The notes under the pieces: model-generated | What the model was told of the DNA's origin: nothing | Seen by the model: only the letters and a program-made list of their open reading frames with translations | Database searches by the model: none | Position numbers and translations under genes: made by a program | Shown here: positions 3,348 to 48,765 of the stretch, one piece after another | How positions within the stretch are numbered: the stretch's first letter is position 1 | Layout of the letters: each line of letters opens with the position of its first letter | Assembly: GCA_964494905.1 (NCBI GenBank) | Contig: CAZBTU010000003.1 | Coordinates: 1-61,319, forward strand | Origin: an uncultured Pseudomonadales bacterium | GTDB taxonomy: Bacteria; Patescibacteriota; Microgenomatia; UBA1400; PJMF01 | DNA length: 61,319 nt | Reading direction: 5' to 3'

Positions 3348-6300
3348 CTAGTTCAATGCTTCAATATATTTATCAATTTGTTCCTTCATGAATGATGTGG
3401 CATTTGATTGATATGATTTTAATAAGTTAATTATTTCACTCGGTGAAATTATCTGTTGCCATTGATCACTTTTTGATTTATAACTTTCAATAAATTCATA
3501 AAAAAATGTAGGATTTTGAGTTACCTCTCTTATGAATATTCTGGCATCTCTCATTTCTCCTGAGTTAAGTAAGATCGGATTGGAAAGAATAAGCTCTTTG
3601 CGATATGTTGGTAAAATCAAAAAAAGATATTCAAATTGTTTTTCCGAAGCAATTGAAGCAAAGAAATTATTAGGTAGACCTGTTGAATTCACTATATCAA
3701 AAACATAGTGTTCACCATGTAGATCTTTTATCCCACTCAATACATTTAGGTAATCCTTAATCATAAAAGTTTCACCTGAATTCATAAAAGCATCTATTTG
3801 ATCAAAATTACTAACAATATTGGCTAGTGTTGTATAACCATAATCATCATAAATACCACGAAATATTTTATTGATTTGATCTTGATTAAGCTGCCCAAAG
3901 TATTCCTTACAAAGGGTAAAGTATGGGTCAGACTCATCTGCAAGATAAAGTTTTTGCAAGAATTCAGTTCGAAAAAGAGTAAACAGAATCAATTGCTTTG
4001 CCATGGGATCGATGACCATGAACTTATCCAAATATTCTGTATCAAGTTTATCTAAATCTCTGATCGCATCAGGGCTTACTGGCACAGTAAGATCAGAAAG
4101 GTTTGGACTAAGAAGAATAAATCGATTGAAGAGTGAACCACCCAGTTTAACATAGATAACGTTACCTGTATTGTCTTCAAATTCAACAACTTCACCGGTT
4201 ATCAATTTTTGTAGAAGTTCTCTGTATAGCACATTGTCATCAAATTCGACAACTTCGCCGGATATGAATTCCTGTGGTAATCGCGGATCAAATCCATACC
4301 AATTTGCATTTGTGTCAACCGCGATAAATCGTAATTGCGAACCTATTTCTCCACTTTTTGTTTCCGGTTTCGGTGCACCAGGTAGATCATCAATTATTTC
4401 ATCAAATACTGCAAGGTTACTCATTAAATAGTCCAATTGATCTCTGAGTTTTTTACTCCCATAAGGATCTCCTGAATATCCTTGATATATTCCAATATAA
4501 TCCTGAAGCAAGCCGCCAATACTCGCGGACGTAGGTGATACACCTGCTATAGCAAGCAGATTCATAATATGATACATCCCACCAGCTAGGTTAGCCGGAT
4601 CAAAGTTTTTCATTAGAAAATCTTTAGAAGGTATATCCCAGTATTTAGATTCTGGGAGCAGTAACGCTAGATCAGCCGCAGTAAATCCTTTTGAAAAAGG
4701 GTCTTCGATCATTGTCTGAGCCAGAAATCCGGAATCAGAATTATTTAATGAACCTATAGGAGTACCTATAAATGGGTTGTTTCTCGTAATCAGTTTTAAA
4801 GCGATAGTTACATCCCACATTGAGGAGTAGAGATCACCGTCATTTTTAACAAGCGCAAAGGCTAATATATCGGAGATAGGAACTTGGTTTTGTGTATGTT
4901 CATATTGTTGAAAAATAAAATTTTGATAATCAGAAAAATATAAAGTAATTTGTTCAATATTTAGCTGTTTAACTGTTGGGTGAAGCGAGTTATACAAAAC
5001 ACAAACGTCGTGGAAATTAGAAAAATTGCTACTGGATAGATGATAAACTTGTTGTAGTGATTCCGATGTTATTGACAAGAATAGAGGATCACTATTATTA
5101 TTTTTTGATAAAGTATAATCCGTGACAACATCATCTAATCCGACGTAGTCAGGATGAACTTGCCAGAAAACAGGCGAGGGGTCGTGATTATATTTTCTCG
5201 CCATTGTTTCATATGTTGAAAATGCATTCGTTAATAACACATCAATTGTTTGATAATTCAGGTTTTCTTTTTCTAATAATTCATATAGTGCTGTCTGCTT
5301 TTCTTCTGGGAATAATTCGATTTGTTCTCGTAACTGATCATCAAAATCTCTTTCTTTTTCCGTAAGGACAGTGATCGCAAACTCGAATAACTTTTTTGCA
5401 GACTCGGGATCACTTAAATCAGCATTTATCATCTGAATAAATTGTGGGTCTGTGAATATATCAATCAGTGCTTCACTAGGTAGTTTAGAGATAAGATTCA
5501 AGGTCTGATGTTCAAACAGTTCTAAAAATTGTGCTCCCATCTCTGTAGTAGTAAGCCACATTAGACCTTTTTGAATAATCATTTGTTCCTGATTATGGAA
5601 AAAATGTTCTACCGATTCACTCGCAGCCGAAACTATATCAGCTGCTGTCGGACCAAAAACTGAAAGTAAATATAATATATTCACTAAGATTAAATCTTTT
5701 TTTAAATCGGCAGCTCTATCACTATTTGTTGCAACTTGTTCAATTCTTGTACGGATTCTGTTTATCTCTCTTGGTATTTTTTGACCCTGTTGTTCCATGC
5801 AGACACACCACTGGACTATTTTTTGTGTCGGCGTAAGACTATCATCACTAAGCACCAAACTTGCAATTTTAGGCTTCAGTTCTTCAAGAGTTTTCAGGGA
5901 TCGTAAACGACTGACGTTGTCGCCATAGCTGTATGCACCTGATCTCTGATCTTCAAGCAATTGGCCATAAACAACAGCGTGTGAATGTTCTCGAGAACCC
6001 TGTGTAGTCCGTAATGTTTGAGTCAGTACACCCATGTGTTTAAGAGTTTTCTCAATTTCACTTTTACCTTTTTCTTTAAGTGTGTTTTCTAAACCAAAGA
6101 AATCATTTATTCTACCAAAAAATTTGGTTCTTCCAATACTTTCAGCAGCTAGTCCATCAAGCGCCATTGCTTTATTGAGGTTCCATTGTTTCAAAAAATC
6201 ATGATTAGCATCTTTTAAAAAAGAAGCTGCTGTATTCCACCAGGTTTTTGACTCAACTGCAAGAAAATCATAATAACTGATTTTATCGGTAAAACCATCT

Positions 6301-43025: not shown

Positions 43026-43034
43026 TGCTATAAT
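43026..43034 (+). promoter_or_regulatory. Extended -10 promoter (TGcTATAAT)
   Basis: TGCTATAAT lies 10 nt before the ATG at 43045. It overlaps the track start at 43033, which is therefore unlikely to be the true start. Confidence 0.5.
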
Positions 43035-43044
43035 GTTCTTGCCC

Positions 43045-45027
43045 ATGTTAAACACTCAAAAGCTGCTCTATATTCTCTCAGACGTTTCATACGTAGTGGA
43101 ACTGCTACCAACTAAAAAAGAGCACACATTTGCCGTCCAGACCTTCCGACAAATCAACGGTGAGTTCATGGATGATAATACATTCATCACTAATAACGTC
43201 GTTAAACTCCTGAGCAAGCTTGAACCTGACGAGTACCATCTAATACTTCCCGATTTTCTCTTTACTAATACCATCATTAGCGTCGAAGCTAAGTCAGACA
43301 CAAAAATTAAAGAGTATCTCAAGTCAAAACTTCTTCCCAGCCTTGGCATCTCAAACGACACACATGAGATCGAGACCCTCGTTCTTGCCGAGTTTAAAGG
43401 TAATTCTAAAGTTCAGCTCTCTGCCATTGAAAAAGAGATATTGGCACCAATTCGAGTGGCTGTGGCTCAACAAAGTGCCAAGGTCAAAGCTATTTCCCCA
43501 CTAAGCTGGACAATAAAGTCACTGGTCTCTCTTGAACCTTCTATTAGTGTTATTCAAATCGGCTCAAAACTTTACAGTGCTCAGCACTATATTGGTATAG
43601 ACCAAACAAACATGGCTGATGTCGGTGATACAGAGACTATTGCCGAAACAATCAAGACCTTAAAGGGTGGCGAGCCAAATATTCAGACTGTCTATCTGCT
43701 CACCAACCAACTGGTTGAGGATTCACTCAAATCAACATTATCTAGCACAATACCACTTCAGCAACTCGCATCATATAAAGATGAAGACAGTCAAATGCCT
43801 TCATATGTCAAAGAAATTATTGAAGCAGGAATGAAAACACTATCCATTAGTGATTATCCTGTCCCGAAGTTCTCACTAGGGAAACCAAGCGACGAAGAAA
43901 AAGCAGCTGTTGTACTCGCCCAAACAACTGCCAAAGAAAAAAACAAACCAGACGACGAAGCAGTTGAGGAAGTCAGCGCGCCCCAATTATTAGCAAGCGA
44001 GACGAGCCATCAAGAAAAACTTGAGGCTGGTGATGACATCCCTCCACTTCCCGGCCCTTCAACACCCCAAATTGGCGTAGTACCTATTGTATTAAATACC
44101 GACAGTGAATCAGTTGAGCACGAAGAAAAGACTTCGATCACTGCTTTAAAAGACGGAGATGACGAATCGTCTGATATTGACACAAAAAACAGTACTCAGA
44201 GCTCTGAACCTTTACCAAGCGAAAGAGCATTGACTAAGGAACAGCCTATGCCCACAGACTCAATTGACTCCATCTCAGAAAAGCTACCAGCATCCTCCGC
44301 CACACCTGAATCAATAAATCCTGAGCCAAGCACAGCCATTACAGCAGACGACGAATCGTCCTTGGACAACACGCTTGCCAATTTTGTCCCAGTTAAAACA
44401 ACATCAGAAACTGGAAGTGCATTAGCTGGGGAGTCAACAATCCCTAATACAACTAAGTCAACAGTTACAACAACTGGAACTGTTCCAACCGGGAAAGACA
44501 ACTCGGGAGTAATCAAAAATACCTCAGGAGTGAGTACTATGCTCAAAATGGTCTTCATTACGTTAGCCGTTTTCTTTGCAACAGTGGCTGTAGGAGTTGG
44601 AGTTGGTCTCGGTTTGCTTCAGTTCAGTAACAAAGAAACAAATACTGGTACTCCTGTTGCAAGCCCAATCGCCGACGCAAGTCCTGAGCCAACCATCGAG
44701 CCTTCCCCCAGTGCTTCCCCTGCTGCTGCCATCGACCCTAGCAAGATCAAGCTGTTAGTTGTGAACGCAACGACAAAGGCGGGATATGCTGGAACCATAA
44801 AAACTGCACTAGAAAAGGCAAAGTTCACAGGAGTTGCAGCTGGAAATGCCAAAGGTGAATATGAGGATACCACTAATTATTTATTAGTGAGTGAAGAATT
44901 GGCTGGTTTAGAAACAATCATTGAGGAAGCAACTGATCTGACATTTGAGGTAGTTTCTGATGCCGATGAAAAGACAGTGGAAGACAGTAAAAATACTTAT
45001 GACGCGGTGGTCGTTCTATCTGAGTAG
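43045..45027 (+). CDS. Membrane protein with a long Ser/Thr/Pro/Glu-rich linker, one TM helix and a C-terminal LytR_C-like domain
   Basis: TM segment MLKMVFITLAVFFATVAVGVGVGLGLL. C-terminal KLLVVNATTKAGYAGTIKTALEKAKFTGVAAGNAKGEYEDTTNYLLV matches the LytR C-terminal domain pattern. Confidence 0.6.
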   Translation: MLNTQKLLYILSDVSYVVELLPTKKEHTFAVQTFRQINGEFMDDNTFITNNVVKLLSKLEPDEYHLILPDFLFTNTIISVEAKSDTKIKEYLKSKLLPSLGISNDTHEIETLVLAEFKGNSKVQLSAIEKEILAPIRVAVAQQSAKVKAISPLSWTIKSLVSLEPSISVIQIGSKLYSAQHYIGIDQTNMADVGDTETIAETIKTLKGGEPNIQTVYLLTNQLVEDSLKSTLSSTIPLQQLASYKDEDSQMPSYVKEIIEAGMKTLSISDYPVPKFSLGKPSDEEKAAVVLAQTTAKEKNKPDDEAVEEVSAPQLLASETSHQEKLEAGDDIPPLPGPSTPQIGVVPIVLNTDSESVEHEEKTSITALKDGDDESSDIDTKNSTQSSEPLPSERALTKEQPMPTDSIDSISEKLPASSATPESINPEPSTAITADDESSLDNTLANFVPVKTTSETGSALAGESTIPNTTKSTVTTTGTVPTGKDNSGVIKNTSGVSTMLKMVFITLAVFFATVAVGVGVGLGLLQFSNKETNTGTPVASPIADASPEPTIEPSPSASPAAAIDPSKIKLLVVNATTKAGYAGTIKTALEKAKFTGVAAGNAKGEYEDTTNYLLVSEELAGLETIIEEATDLTFEVVSDADEKTVEDSKNTYDAVVVLSE

Positions 45028-45198: not shown

Positions 45199-46212
45199 AT
45201 GGCTGCTACCGGAATTCACATCTCAATCTCAGCCGAGCCACTTTTCTCAATTGGCGGCTTTGAAGTATCTAATTCAATTTTCACAAGCCTGATTGTCAGT
45301 GCACTCCTTATCGGGTTTGGTATAGCTGTCCGTTCCCAGCTCACGAATACCAGAAGACCAGCTGGGCTTCAAAACTTTGCAGAGTGGCTTATTGAGTCAC
45401 TTTACGGCTTGGTATACAGTGTGGCGGGCAATGCTAAAAAGGCCCGTCTTTTTTTTCCATTCATTGCCACTTTCTTTTTATTCATTTTACTGAACAACTG
45501 GCTGGGATTGATTCCTGGTGTAGGTACCATTGGGATCATACATAACGAAGCTGAGACAACCGAAGAACATGCTTCGAGCAGTGTAGTTGACCAAGTACAG
45601 GCTGCCACCGAACCAGTAGTTGCAAGTGAAGAAGCAGTTCTGGTGCTTCCTCAAGATCATCTTGACGCTATTGATGCCGAACAAGCAATCACAGAAGAAA
45701 ACGATGAACTGCCCATCGTTATCGACACTGAACACTCGAGTGAACCTGTATTTGTAGAAGATGACCACACCGACTCATCTGAAGCAGAGATGGCACCGAA
45801 AGAGTCACACAGTACATTTGTTCCGTTGCTTCGCCCGGGCAGTGCTGACCTCAACACCACACTCGCACTTGCACTCTTCTCCGTGGGATTAACACAACTA
45901 TTTGGGTATCACTTCCAGAAACTGAGTTACTTCAAGAAGTTTATTAACTTCTCAAGCCCTATCATGTTCTTCGTAGGAATTCTGGAAATCGTCTCTGAGT
46001 TTGCTAAGATCATCTCGTTTGCATTCCGGTTATTCGGTAATATCTTTGCTGGTGAAGTTTTGCTGGCCGTTATGATGTTCCTGATTCCACTGGTCATCCC
46101 CATGCCTTTCTACGGCCTGGAGATCTTCGTCGGCTTTATCCAAGCCGTCGTCTTCGCAATGTTGTCGTTAGTATTCTTTAACATGGCAAGCGAAAGCCAT
46201 GATAGTCATTAA
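45199..46212 (+). CDS. atpB: F0F1 ATP synthase subunit a, with an internal acidic insertion of about 93 aa
   Basis: FRLFGNIFAGE carries the essential Arg motif. PGSADLNTTLALAL is the conserved loop/helix. Length is 337 aa, against roughly 230-270 aa for the bacterial a subunits recalled (E. coli 271, Bacillus PS3 about 236). Confidence 0.9.
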   Translation: MAATGIHISISAEPLFSIGGFEVSNSIFTSLIVSALLIGFGIAVRSQLTNTRRPAGLQNFAEWLIESLYGLVYSVAGNAKKARLFFPFIATFFLFILLNNWLGLIPGVGTIGIIHNEAETTEEHASSSVVDQVQAATEPVVASEEAVLVLPQDHLDAIDAEQAITEENDELPIVIDTEHSSEPVFVEDDHTDSSEAEMAPKESHSTFVPLLRPGSADLNTTLALALFSVGLTQLFGYHFQKLSYFKKFINFSSPIMFFVGILEIVSEFAKIISFAFRLFGNIFAGEVLLAVMMFLIPLVIPMPFYGLEIFVGFIQAVVFAMLSLVFFNMASESHDSH

Positions 46213-46443
<231 letters not shown>

Positions 46444-46476: not shown

Positions 46477-46962
46477 ATGGACATCCAAGTTACACAAATA
46501 CTTTTTCAAATTGTCAATTTTTCTGTTGTCTTAGGAGCTCTTTCATACCTCCTTTACAAGCCAATTTTGAAGATTTTTGAGGAACGAAGTAAGCGCATCG
46601 AAGAAGGACAAAAAGCTGCTGAAGAAGCACTGCGAAGCAAGGAAGCTCTCGATCAAATGAAAGAGGAAGCGCAAACTGCTCTCAAAAAAGAGAGAACACA
46701 AGTTCTTAAAAAAGCACAAGATGAAGCTGCTGAAAAAAGGCAAGAAATTTTGACGCAGGCAAAGCAAGAAGCTCAAGAAGAAATTGCTAAGATGAAAAAA
46801 GATTGGGAGCGCGAGAAGCAGTTACTCGTGCTGAACTCAAAAGAGGAGCTTGTGCATGCGGTCGTTTCCGTAGCCGAGAAACTCATTCAGAAAAAATTTG
46901 ATAAAAAAGCAGATGAGCAGCTTATTGAGTCAGAACTAACCAACATTCTCAAGTCAGTATGA
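46477..46962 (+). CDS. atpF: F0F1 ATP synthase subunit b
   Basis: N-terminal TM helix followed by a long charged helix. Position in the operon. Confidence 0.85.
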   Translation: MDIQVTQILFQIVNFSVVLGALSYLLYKPILKIFEERSKRIEEGQKAAEEALRSKEALDQMKEEAQTALKKERTQVLKKAQDEAAEKRQEILTQAKQEAQEEIAKMKKDWEREKQLLVLNSKEELVHAVVSVAEKLIQKKFDKKADEQLIESELTNILKSV

Positions 46963-47207
46963 AATCACTCCATCAAGTACACATTACAACTGCGCAACAA
47001 CTATCAGAGGCAGCTCTAAAAAAAGTCCGAGCTTCCTTAGAAAAGAAGTACTCAAAAGAGTCACTTGAGCTCGTTTGTACTGTTAGTCCCGAACTTTTAG
47101 GCGGTATTAAAATCACTATTGATGCCATTGAGTATGATGGCAGTGTCTCAGGCAAACTTGCTCAACTCAAAAACCATTTGCTGGCCGAGCAAATGCACAA
47201 TCAATAG
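46959..47207 (+). CDS. atpH: F0F1 ATP synthase subunit delta, truncated (82 aa, C-terminal domain only)
   Basis: VSPELLGGIKITIDAIEYDGSVSGKLAQLK matches the delta/OSCP C-terminus. ATGA overlap with atpF. The N-terminal alpha-binding domain is absent. Confidence 0.7.
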   Translation: MKSLHQVHITTAQQLSEAALKKVRASLEKKYSKESLELVCTVSPELLGGIKITIDAIEYDGSVSGKLAQLKNHLLAEQMHNQ

Positions 47208-47229: not shown

Positions 47230-48765
47230 GTGTCCATGAAAAAAAAATCGTTGTTTACCACATCACTTGCCAAGTCAATTGCTGATGCACCCATTACCGT
47301 AGAGGCACAGTCGATCGGTACTGTTATCTCGTATGGTGACGGTGTCGTTCGGGTTACTGGCATGCAAGATGTGCAAGCAGGCGAGTTAATTGATCTTGGT
47401 GAAGGTCAATTCGGTTTGGCACTCAACTTAGAAAAAGACTCTATCGGTATTGTCGCTTTAGGCGATGCTCGTCACCTTATGGCAGGATCGCTCGTCAAAA
47501 GAACTGGTCGAATTCTCTCCATAGGTGTATCTGATGAGATCGTCGGTCGAGTTGTCGATCCACTCGGTCGCGCGCTTGATGGTCAAGGTCCAATTATTGC
47601 TCAAAAGCACATGTTGCTCGAGAAGCTTGCGCCGGGAATCATGCCGCGCAAGTCAGTAACTGTTCCTATGCAAACTGGTATTAAGGCAATTGATGCCATG
47701 ATTCCAATTGGAAGAGGTCAACGCGAACTTATTATCGGTGATCGCTCAACAGGTAAAACTGCTGTAGCGCTCGGCACCATACTGAATCAAAATGACCAAA
47801 ATGTCGTTTGTGTGTACGTCTGTATTGGACAGAAGCGCGCGTCACTCGCACAAACCATCCAGATACTAAGCGAACATAAAGCGCTCGATTACACCGTAAT
47901 TGTTTCGGCAACTGCGTCTGTCTCAGCTGCTGAGCAGTTTCTTGCACCATATGCCGGGCAAGCGGTCGCTGAGTATTTCTTAGAACAAGGTAAAGACGTT
48001 TTAATCATTTTTGATGACCTAACCAAACACGCACAAGCATATCGTGAAATTTCATTATTGTTGAGACGACCTTCAGGAAGAGAAGCGTACCCTGGTGATG
48101 TCTTCTACCTCCATTCTCGTCTGTTAGAAAGAGCCTGTCGCCTTAACGATAAAAATGGCGGCGGTTCAATAACTGCACTGCCAATCATCGAAACACAGAT
48201 GAATGACGTCTCTGCCTTTATTCCAACTAACGTCATCAGTATTACTGACGGACAAATTTACCTAGAGTCAGATTTATTTAATGCCGGCATGAAACCAGCA
48301 ATTAATGTCGGGTTATCTGTCTCTCGTGTTGGCTCAGCAGCTCAGGTCAAGGCTATGAAGCAAGTCGCTGGAACTATGAAGCTAGACCTAGCCCAGTTCA
48401 GAGAACTACAAGCTTTTGCACAATTTAGCTCTGATCTTGATGATAAAACCAAAGCCCAACTTAACAGAGGAGAGCGTGTCAACGCAATCCTTAAACAAGG
48501 ATGGGATGAACCACTTAAGATCGAAGAGCAAGTTATCGTAATATTCGCAGCTGTAAAAGGCTATCTTGATCCGGTAAAAGTGACTGACATCCAAAAATGG
48601 GAAGCAGAGTACATTAAGTACATGAAAACTTCTTACTCCCAACTTATTGAGCGAATTGCTACAGAAAAAGTAATCAGTGAGCAAACAGATAAAGAGCTTC
48701 ATGCTGCCATCGAAGCCTTTAATAGTATTCATCCTGAGCTCACTACACAAACTGAACAATCGTAG
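47230..48765 (+). CDS. atpA: F0F1 ATP synthase subunit alpha
   Basis: [10 protein letters not shown]-loop and typical alpha sequence throughout. GTG at 47230, or ATG at 47236. Confidence 0.93.

Follow-up and report, generated by a model that had tools for sequence, protein, structure and literature searches.

A long acidic, histidine-rich loop at the outer aH3-aH4 tip of ATP synthase subunit a in a Patescibacteria lineage, and its possible role at the proton channel mouth

Results and Discussion

Subunit a carries a long expansion between helices aH3 and aH4

In a 61,319-nucleotide stretch of DNA (the window; contig CAZBTU010000003.1 of assembly GCA_964494905.1, positions 1 to 61,319 of the forward strand, from an uncultured bacterium that GTDB places in Patescibacteriota, Microgenomatia, UBA1400, PJMF01), the atpB gene for subunit a of the F-type ATP synthase was found to contain a large acidic insertion. 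We conclude with near certainty that this insertion is a genuine part of subunit a, in which it expands the aH3-aH4 hairpin at its extracytoplasmic tip, as is typical of the lineage, and that it occupies the site corresponding to His142-Thr172 of the Chloroflexus aurantiacus enzyme. Subunit a is among the most conserved membrane proteins, and beside the proton entrance its outer surface usually shows just a short, bare turn. What the expansion does is addressed tentatively below, where a role as a proton buffer is weighed against other readings.

The 337-residue atpB product matched PF00119 (ATP-synt_A) with 153.3 bits in a Pfam profile search, for which the curated cut-off is 33.9, and ATP-synt_A was the sole family matched. 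The match was broken in two, with residues 208-327 forming the second stretch and covering profile positions 78-216; thus, about 100 residues of subunit a have no counterpart in the family profile. AlphaFold2 (AF2) models predicted helices at residues 79-102, 218-240, 254-295, and 304-331, which make up two long membrane hairpins, aH3-aH4 and aH5-aH6, and the core was modelled confidently, with block means of 82-96 for the predicted local distance difference test (pLDDT) when 121 homologues were aligned. A Foldseek search with the AF2 model returned a-subunits from bacteria, chloroplasts, and mitochondria. The window protein is a true member of the F-type family of a-subunits. A first-pass annotation, made from the sequence alone, had judged that the gene is not a pseudogene, and this was borne out: the rest of the protein is intact, and the functional residues His7, Glu263, Arg277, Glu286, and Glu308 are invariant among 121 homologues. 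Glu263 and Glu308 align with Glu235 and Glu280 of the C. aurantiacus subunit, whose F1Fo structures (PDB 9itj-9itx; Zhang et al., PNAS 2025, PMC12002316) are cited throughout from excerpts of that paper. The features of the gene are as follows.

45199-46212, forward strand: atpB, F-type ATP synthase subunit a, 337 residues (open reading frame; PF00119; PDB and Foldseek matches)
45217-45219, forward strand: His7, invariant in 121 homologues; its aligned counterpart in C. aurantiacus, aHis31, belongs to the inlet half-channel on the periplasmic side (PMC12002316, excerpt)
45517-45540, forward strand: N-side base of the loop, GVGTIGII, residues 107-114; Pro106, Gly107, and Val108 invariant and Thr110 kept in at least 90% of 121 homologues
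45541-45573, forward strand: start of the acidic insertion, HNEAETTEEHA, residues 115-125, aligned with HEK-KEEHA of C. aurantiacus
45580-45612, forward strand: SVVDQVQAATE, residues 128-138, the only module of the insertion conserved in sequence (from homologue columns)
45613-45798, forward strand: hypervariable polyanionic tract, residues 139-200, with column occupancy of 3-77% among homologues; predicted to be disordered
45652-45693, forward strand: helix predicted by AF2 with low confidence, residues 152-165, within the hypervariable tract
45799-45819, forward strand: C-side base of the loop, KESHSTF, residues 201-207, with the conserved His204; a strand is predicted at 205-209
45823-45861, forward strand: PLLRPGSADLNTT, start of aH4, residues 209-221, with Pro209, Arg212, Asp217, Asn219, and Thr221 invariant
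46027-46029, forward strand: Arg277, the essential stator arginine in RLFGN, aligned with C. aurantiacus Arg249; invariant in 121 homologues
46054-46056, forward strand: Glu286 (FAGE), aligned with C. aurantiacus Glu258 in the centre of the periplasmic inlet (PMC12002316, excerpt); invariant in 121 homologues

Loop length was counted from the Pro of NWLGLIP to the Asp of DLN, both of which are conserved and served as anchors. By this measure, the loop has 110 residues in the window and 23 in Escherichia coli AtpB, the latter being as short as the first-pass annotation had stated, and in a sequence alignment about 4 residues of the spinach chloroplast chain stand opposite about 97 of the window. 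The insertion is thereby confirmed. Its net size relative to short-loop relatives is 84-92 residues, so that the earlier size of about 93 residues was slightly generous. It lies between aH3 and aH4, in agreement with the earlier placement between the end of a transmembrane helix and a conserved segment. The inserted segment itself, HNEAETTEEHASSSVVDQVQAATEP...EMAPKESHST, comprises residues 115-206 and nucleotides 45541-45816; the start first proposed therefore holds, and the end first proposed, 45819, takes in one additional codon, that of Phe207.

An independent Logan assembly from a different run (L144) carried the same gene in the same operon with 95% nucleotide identity, an identical length of 337 residues, and no indel, and relatives at 71-79% identity had loops of 107-114 residues. 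Comparing the window with L144, we counted 13 non-synonymous and 14 synonymous differences in the insert, giving a ratio of non-synonymous to synonymous substitution rates (dN/dS) of 0.23, versus 2 non-synonymous and 18 synonymous differences and a dN/dS of 0.03 in the remaining 244 codons. Purifying selection on the insert is therefore relaxed but real. Neither tandem nor flanking repeats were found in or around the insert, and its GC content is ordinary; on these grounds, a recent origin by slippage or from a mobile element was rejected. An artefact, be it an assembly chimera, an unrecognised frameshift, a pseudogene, a mobile element, or an intein, is extremely improbable and already effectively refuted: the same gene stands in the independent L144 assembly, the loop recurs in 119 homologues, the insert is in frame and under purifying selection, it lacks repeats, intein motifs, and Cys, and the protein halves on both sides are intact and conserved. 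Antisense genes were also considered within the insert and rejected, as each of the three minus-strand open reading frames (45487-45768, 45657-45860, and 45402-45608) contained one to three stop codons in L144.

The expansion is placed beside the proton entry half-channel

The best PDB relative by sequence was subunit a of C. aurantiacus (phmmer, 9itj_T, E value 9.9e-60; chloroplast chain, 9.5e-29), which was also the best Foldseek match (9itr_T, E value 1.7e-12) and accounted for all of the top 15 Foldseek matches. The phmmer alignment to 9itj_T passes through GVGTIGIIHNE..EEHA in the window and GVGSIGVCHEKKEEHA in C. aurantiacus, breaks after EEHA, and restarts at FVPLLRPGSADLN, where FVPLLR meets LVPLFR; the break is the aH3-aH4 linker, and the extra residues of the window fall between residues 155 and 179 of the 9itj_T chain. 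According to the excerpted text of PMC12002316, the same linker of the C. aurantiacus enzyme contains a 31-residue inserted stretch, His142-Thr172, called unique by the authors, which is partly disordered and clamped on the periplasmic surface by a Cys135-Cys173 disulfide. The inlet half-channel described in that excerpt starts at His170/Asp171 and runs via His31, Ser131, Glu258, and Glu280, and the enzyme has two a-subunits, two peripheral stalks, and a shortened delta subunit (PMC12002316).

The two proteins share the insertion site at the periplasmic aH3-aH4 tip and the H-E-x-x-EEH-A start of the insertion, and His31, Ser131, Glu258, Glu280, and Arg249 of C. aurantiacus are represented in the window by His7, Thr110, Glu286, Glu308, and Arg277, with Thr110 and Ser131 meeting at the base of the loop. 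The basal His204 is positionally near C. aurantiacus His170/Asp171, where the inlet channel starts (PMC12002316, excerpt). The insertion is disordered in both, by prediction in the window, and the delta subunit is shortened in both. Unlike the C. aurantiacus insertion of 31 residues, however, that of the window has about 90, being about three times longer, and it is far more acidic. Instead of the Cys135-Cys173 disulfide, the window has Ile and no Cys, and a predicted beta-hairpin would serve as the clamp; no Cys was found in the loops of the window and its 119 close homologues. The CPR (Candidate Phyla Radiation) loop is thus a longer, cysteine-free, clade-typical version of the insertion known from Chloroflexus, with disorder predicted by modelling.

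Because of this homology to the solved C. aurantiacus structure, placement of the loop on the outer, positive (P) side of the membrane beside the entry half-channel, as the first-pass annotation had suggested, is supported. Read directly from the sequence, and in keeping with the positive-inside rule, the K/R-rich loops TNTRRP, NAKKAR, and QKLSYFKKF would lie on the opposite side of the membrane. The a-subunit chains of E. coli, spinach chloroplasts, and mycobacteria belong to the same family and share the fold and the essential Arg, but they have no expansion, nor do most CPR a-subunits; the extra residues are thus not a common property of ordinary bacterial a-subunits, the finding that the annotation had named as fatal to its proposal.

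The insertion is conserved in composition more than in sequence

AF2 was run twice, with 37 and with 121 aligned homologues, the second run serving to see whether the loop gains structure. The insert had a pLDDT below 50 at residues 119-202 in the first run and at residues 121-151 and 166-198 in the second, where the only gain of structure in the loop was a marginal helix at residues 152-165 with a pLDDT of 52-59. The core was modelled with confidence in both runs, which also paired the strands at residues 112-116 and 205-209 with each other at the loop's base. AF2 thus predicts that the insert is disordered.

A column-by-column view of the insert over the 121 homologues found a semi-conserved EEH(A/S) at its start (Glu122 55%, Glu123 59%, His124 42%), followed by the module at residues 128-138. 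The pattern of this module is (G/S)(L/V/I)(V/I)xx(V/A)(H/Q/Y)A(A/S)(E/T), summarised as ΦΦxxΦ(H/Q/Y)A(A/S)E, and its Ala135 is kept in 94% of the homologues. The core [QHY]A[AQS][TEDS] occurred in 105 of 208 long loops, versus 12 expected from shuffled sequences (maximum 26), at a median position of 30 residues into the loop. It was sought in Chloroflexota loops as well and is not conserved there; what those loops seem to share is only the EEH(A/S) stretch at the N-terminal end, along with the residues at the base. A His stood no more than nine residues before P-x-x-R in 172 of the 208 long loops and in 33 of 44 short ones.

The insert of the window comprises 92 residues with 26 Asp plus Glu (28%), which confirms the acidity noted earlier, together with 1 Lys, no Arg, 6 His (6.5%), and no Cys, and its net charge is about -25. 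The inserts of the 119 homologues contain 22.6% Glu, 11.7% Thr, 11.3% Ala, 6.8% His, 0.3% Arg, and no Cys or Trp. Their loops are net negative in 117 of 119 cases (median charge -14, range -35 to +2), and 96 of the 119 contain at least 4% His. At 6.8%, His is 3.4-fold more frequent in the insert than in the core (2.0%), and it reaches 16.7% in individual homologues. Twelve other acidic low-complexity tracts of the same genome had a median of 0% His, indicating that the His enrichment is specific to the subunit a loop. Across the clade, the insert is consistently enriched in Glu, His, and Thr. We infer that selection acts mainly on composition, charge, and the motif at residues 128-138 and not on the remaining sequence of the insert.

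The expansion recurs in Patescibacteria and Chloroflexota

Among the 120 best database homologues, 119 were measurable, and their loops all had 50-121 residues (median 81); these homologues are labelled Woesebacteria, Microgenomates, Patescibacteria, and similar. The first-pass annotation had implied that the loop is an oddity of this one protein. That view did not survive, given the 119 long-looped close homologues, the recurrence of the loop in Patescibacteria and Chloroflexota, and the 2025 publication of an insertion at this site in C. aurantiacus (PMC12002316, excerpt).

We then looked across an even sample of Patescibacteria, in which atpB was found in 158 of 301 genomes. Among the 150 matches listed, 11 spanned at least 720 nucleotides, and all 11 had loops of 40-97 residues; of 40 genes of normal span that were fetched, 36 were recovered, 35 of them with loops of 18-27 residues and one with 38. 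Judged from these sequences, the expansion would occur in about 8-13% of the sampled atpB-bearing Patescibacteria species, a range that allows for low-scoring matches possibly split by the insertion. The sole genome sampled from the same family had a 76-residue loop, and seven genomes of the same class (G106, G166, G183, G215, G230, G260, and G288) had no expansion. The short-loop Patescibacteria a-subunits, such as GVGTIGIHEVIHGKEVLVPLFR, belong to the same subfamily as the window protein and have the same flanks and basal His residues, but their loops of 18-27 residues lack the acidic tract and their delta subunits, where checked, have 106-175 residues.

In Chloroflexota, 116 of 121 sampled genomes gave a match, of which 33 spanned at least 720 nucleotides and 2 were split, together about 30%; this fraction rests on match spans, with Herpetosiphon the only one inspected individually. 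In the two split cases (G334:C177:30881-31894 and G348:C8:208207-209070), gaps of about 131 and about 74 residues interrupt ATP-synt_A within open frames that are 471 and 372 residues long, respectively. A search of GTDB species genomes with two subtype motifs gave more than 533 relatives, of which 80 loci from Patescibacteria and Chloroflexota were kept. The Chloroflexota loci kept, from Caldilineae, Anaerolineae, Herpetosiphon, and Chloroflexaceae, had loops of 51-104 residues. Among the loci examined, a pair of loop Cys occurred only in those of Herpetosiphonaceae and Chloroflexaceae and in two from Patescibacteria (L011 and L012). The cultivated Herpetosiphon aurantiacus DSM 785 (L068; CP000875.1) has a 104-residue loop with two Cys and a 118-residue delta subunit, and would be tractable for tests.

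An a-subunit tree was built by a quick method with the loop columns dropped and loop lengths taken from the alignment, and 45 of its 129 branches were left open. The query group had 37 members, 36 of them with long loops, and was supported at 93 by the Shimodaira-Hasegawa-like approximate likelihood ratio test (SH-aLRT). Short-loop sequences, such as those of L091 and L022 (22 residues each), are nested within long-loop clades. Given the weak backbone of this tree, we make no claim as to loop gain versus loss, that is, whether the long state is ancestral or arose repeatedly. A literature search on an a-subunit insertion in Patescibacteria found nothing relevant. A 2026 preprint reports short delta subunits in CPR and Chloroflexota, and none of the passages on "insertion" found in it by a term search concerns the a-subunit loop.

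ATP synthase is patchy within the phylum even between close relatives. Two genomes of the same order as the window, both 99% complete, in a sample that includes G148, G245, G003, and G032, gave no ATP-synt_A match.

The operon also encodes an ultrashort delta subunit

The genes atpB, atpE, atpF, atpH, and atpA are consecutive and on the same strand, and the genome has a single copy of atpB. L144 has the same atp order, with atpG after atpA. The genes downstream of atpB are listed here.

46228-46443, forward strand: atpE, c subunit, 71 residues (PF00137)
46477-46962, forward strand: atpF, b subunit, 161 residues (PF00430)
46959-47207, forward strand: atpH, delta subunit, 82 residues, the C-terminal OSCP part, matching PF00213 at profile positions 103-172 only; it overlaps atpF by ATGA
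47230-48765, forward strand: atpA, alpha subunit, 511 residues (open reading frame with the GDRSTGKT P-loop)

The delta subunits of close relatives have 67-82 residues, and that of L144 likewise has 82. Among the loci examined, delta subunits of 67-87 residues occurred only beside long-loop a-subunits. Of 16 short-loop CPR operons fetched, 13 showed alpha downstream, and 12 of these had an open reading frame of 98-184 residues just upstream of atpA; 10 of the 12 were plausible delta subunits of 106-175 residues. The co-occurrence of an ultrashort delta with a long a-loop in this sample is suggestive, and it is confounded by kinship. A strict link between the two was rejected, as Caldilineae pair 57-residue loops with 176-residue delta subunits. 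A delta reduced to 67-82 residues is a hint that the enzyme may, like that of Chloroflexus, have two stalks and two a-subunits.

A proton buffer at the channel mouth and competing readings

How might such a loop act? The strands at residues 112-116 and 205-209 would join the ends of the insert, so that the 85-90 or so residues between them would loop out, disordered, on the outer face of the membrane, with the channel core (His7, Thr110, Glu286, Glu308, and Arg277) unchanged. The loop's anchor points lie a few residues away from the opening of the P-side half-channel, where the carboxylates and imidazoles of the loop would form a titratable cloud of fixed charge. This cloud would make protons locally more concentrated, and as a tethered buffer it could move protons to or from the channel mouth, acting as a kinetic proton "antenna" or sink with no thermodynamic gain. 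As a rough estimate, a coil with a radius of about 3 nm that carries about 25 charges would hold a few tenths molar of fixed charge, which on a back-of-envelope calculation would lower the local pH by about half to one unit at 50-150 mM salt.

The direction of proton flow may be the reverse of that in ATP synthesis. Proton_antipo_M (complex I NuoL/M/N), COX1, and cytochrome bd subunit I gave no match in the 1.45-Mb, 90%-complete genome. Since no respiratory proton pumps were found, the F-ATPase may mostly hydrolyse ATP, and the mouth would then be a proton exit; the data are consistent with a fermentative organism whose F-ATPase possibly runs in reverse. In hydrolysis mode, the loop would aid the uptake and dispersal of exiting protons.

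Proton antennae have been described as clusters of carboxylates, or of carboxylates and His, near a proton entry site (PMC8203321). Those of bacteriorhodopsin, cytochrome c oxidase, and PsbO (PMC8203321) likewise place carboxylate and His groups by the entry site, as the window does, but they are fixed clusters on folded proteins and are backed by kinetic evidence, whereas the window has a flexible chain, so that the likeness is one of possible principle only. The 28% Asp plus Glu, the 6.5% His, and the anchoring beside the channel mouth fit such an antenna; the disordered chain leaves the spacing of the carboxylates unfixed. We tentatively put forward a role for the loop as a proton buffer or antenna where the channel opens, as a possibility of some weight; the proton- or cation-collecting antenna or docking site that the first-pass annotation had offered as speculation remains speculative.

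Several observations weigh against it. The C. aurantiacus insertion is disordered, and the excerpt of PMC12002316 assigns it no function. The insert is dispensable for the enzyme, because most Patescibacteria and about 70% of the sampled Chloroflexota have no expansion and the long and short states change at least 12 times on the a-subunit tree. Its length and sequence are hypervariable among homologues. Its acidity may be a mere requirement of a long translocated loop under the positive-inside rule, and when an acidic tract was defined as a 60-residue window with at least 14 Asp or Glu and at most 2 Lys or Arg, such tracts were found in 41 of about 1260 crude open reading frames of the genome, several of them for envelope proteins including the upstream neighbour. 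Moreover, a Donnan-type cloud is unable to alter the proton-motive force, leaving a kinetic benefit only, and classical antennas have fixed clusters at close spacing, which a disordered chain does not provide.

Many of the same observations speak for a merely tolerated spacer, a tentative reading of comparable standing that we regard as possible but doubtful. The hairpin tip would then be a permissive site at which low-complexity sequence grows and shrinks with no role of its own; acidity and scarcity of Lys and Arg would reflect the limits of translocation (the positive-inside rule and electrophoretic help for acidic residues), and purifying selection would merely keep the loop harmless and in frame. 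This agrees with the repeated changes of state and the short loops of L091 and L022 nested in long-loop clades, with loop lengths that run from 38 to 121 over mostly gapped columns, with a dN/dS seven times that of the core, with the predicted disorder, and with similar acidic tracts in other envelope proteins of the genome, the upstream neighbour among them. Yet a dN/dS of 0.23 is well under neutrality; the 3.4-fold His enrichment over 119 diverged homologues is absent from the other acidic tracts of the genome and finds no explanation in a translocation constraint; the 11-residue motif with its 94% conserved Ala stands at a fixed distance into the loop; and the long state is kept in 36 of 37 members of the query clade.

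An architectural or contact role, in an enzyme whose 82-residue delta suggests two a-subunits and two stalks as in Chloroflexus, appears quite unlikely. The loop could cap the periplasmic face of the c-ring, join the two a-subunits, or touch the wall, an S-layer, or a host surface, and the conserved 11-residue motif could be its docking element. The closest solved enzyme does have two a-subunits and a shortened delta, but its insertion is disordered and without a modelled contact in the excerpted description (PMC12002316). Ultrashort delta subunits did accompany only long-loop a-subunits in the loci examined, but this link is loose, given the long loops of Caldilineae with full-length delta subunits, and kinship confounds it; AF2 models no confident structure for the motif, and stoichiometry is not readable from sequence, a single atpB copy being expected either way. 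More improbable still is a loop that binds divalent cations (Mg2+, Ca2+, Zn2+, or Ni2+) at the cell surface as a store, a scavenger, or a regulator or shield of the channel mouth: although 26 Asp or Glu and 6 His in 92 residues resemble the composition of known His/acid-rich metal-binding tracts, and homologues often show EEH and HxxH-like spacings, there is no conserved metal-binding motif and no fixed His spacing, the His positions vary, the loop has no Cys, and the Pfam search matched no metal-binding family. The probability left over from these readings, the artefact included as the fifth, falls to something that we have not considered.

A bolder reading extends the proton-buffer proposal to the whole enzyme. 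The F-ATPase of this large Patescibacteria clade would have been remodelled on both membrane faces, with a delta of 67-82 residues inside and a polyanionic His-rich tether of 50-120 residues on each a-subunit outside. This would suit it to a fermentative episymbiont, in which the proton-motive force is very low or imposed from outside, and the loop would be a funnel or sink for protons. We think this unlikely as it stands.

The aH3-aH4 tip emerges as a recurrent point of expansion in the Chloroflexota/Patescibacteria type of enzyme, and in a CPR clade of many species it became a carboxylate/His tether of conserved composition. It offers a testable idea, that rotary ATPases may tune the supply or removal of protons at the channel mouth, and one more sequence marker that ties the ATP synthases of CPR to the unusual two-stator Chloroflexus enzyme. 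Should the loop be dispensable, it would still be a useful marker and a caution for annotation, as Pfam splits the protein in two.

Neighbouring genes and database labels

By inspection, the c subunit (46228-46443) contains GIGIG, with no Gln, and AEA, in which Glu is followed by Ala and not by Ser or Thr. With the motif of Ilyobacter tartaricus taken for reference, it has no Na+-binding signature, and the enzyme is presumably H+-coupled. Upstream of atpB, the gene at 43033-45027 encodes a 664-residue protein with a long Ser/Thr/Pro/Glu low-complexity tract, one transmembrane helix, and a weak LytR_C match (E value 1.2e-4). At a Pacebacteria locus (L033, from position 6155 onward), the alpha open reading frame has 798 residues versus about 505 elsewhere and may contain an intein or a fused domain.

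Many loci from binchicken/SRP co-assemblies (L023, L024, L026, L029, L030, L059, L066, and others) that are titled "uncultured Pseudomonadales/Gammaproteobacteria bacterium" carry a CPR-type atp operon, as does L045, titled "candidate division TM6". Because these metagenome-assembled genomes nest among Patescibacteria on the tree, their NCBI organism labels look wrong.

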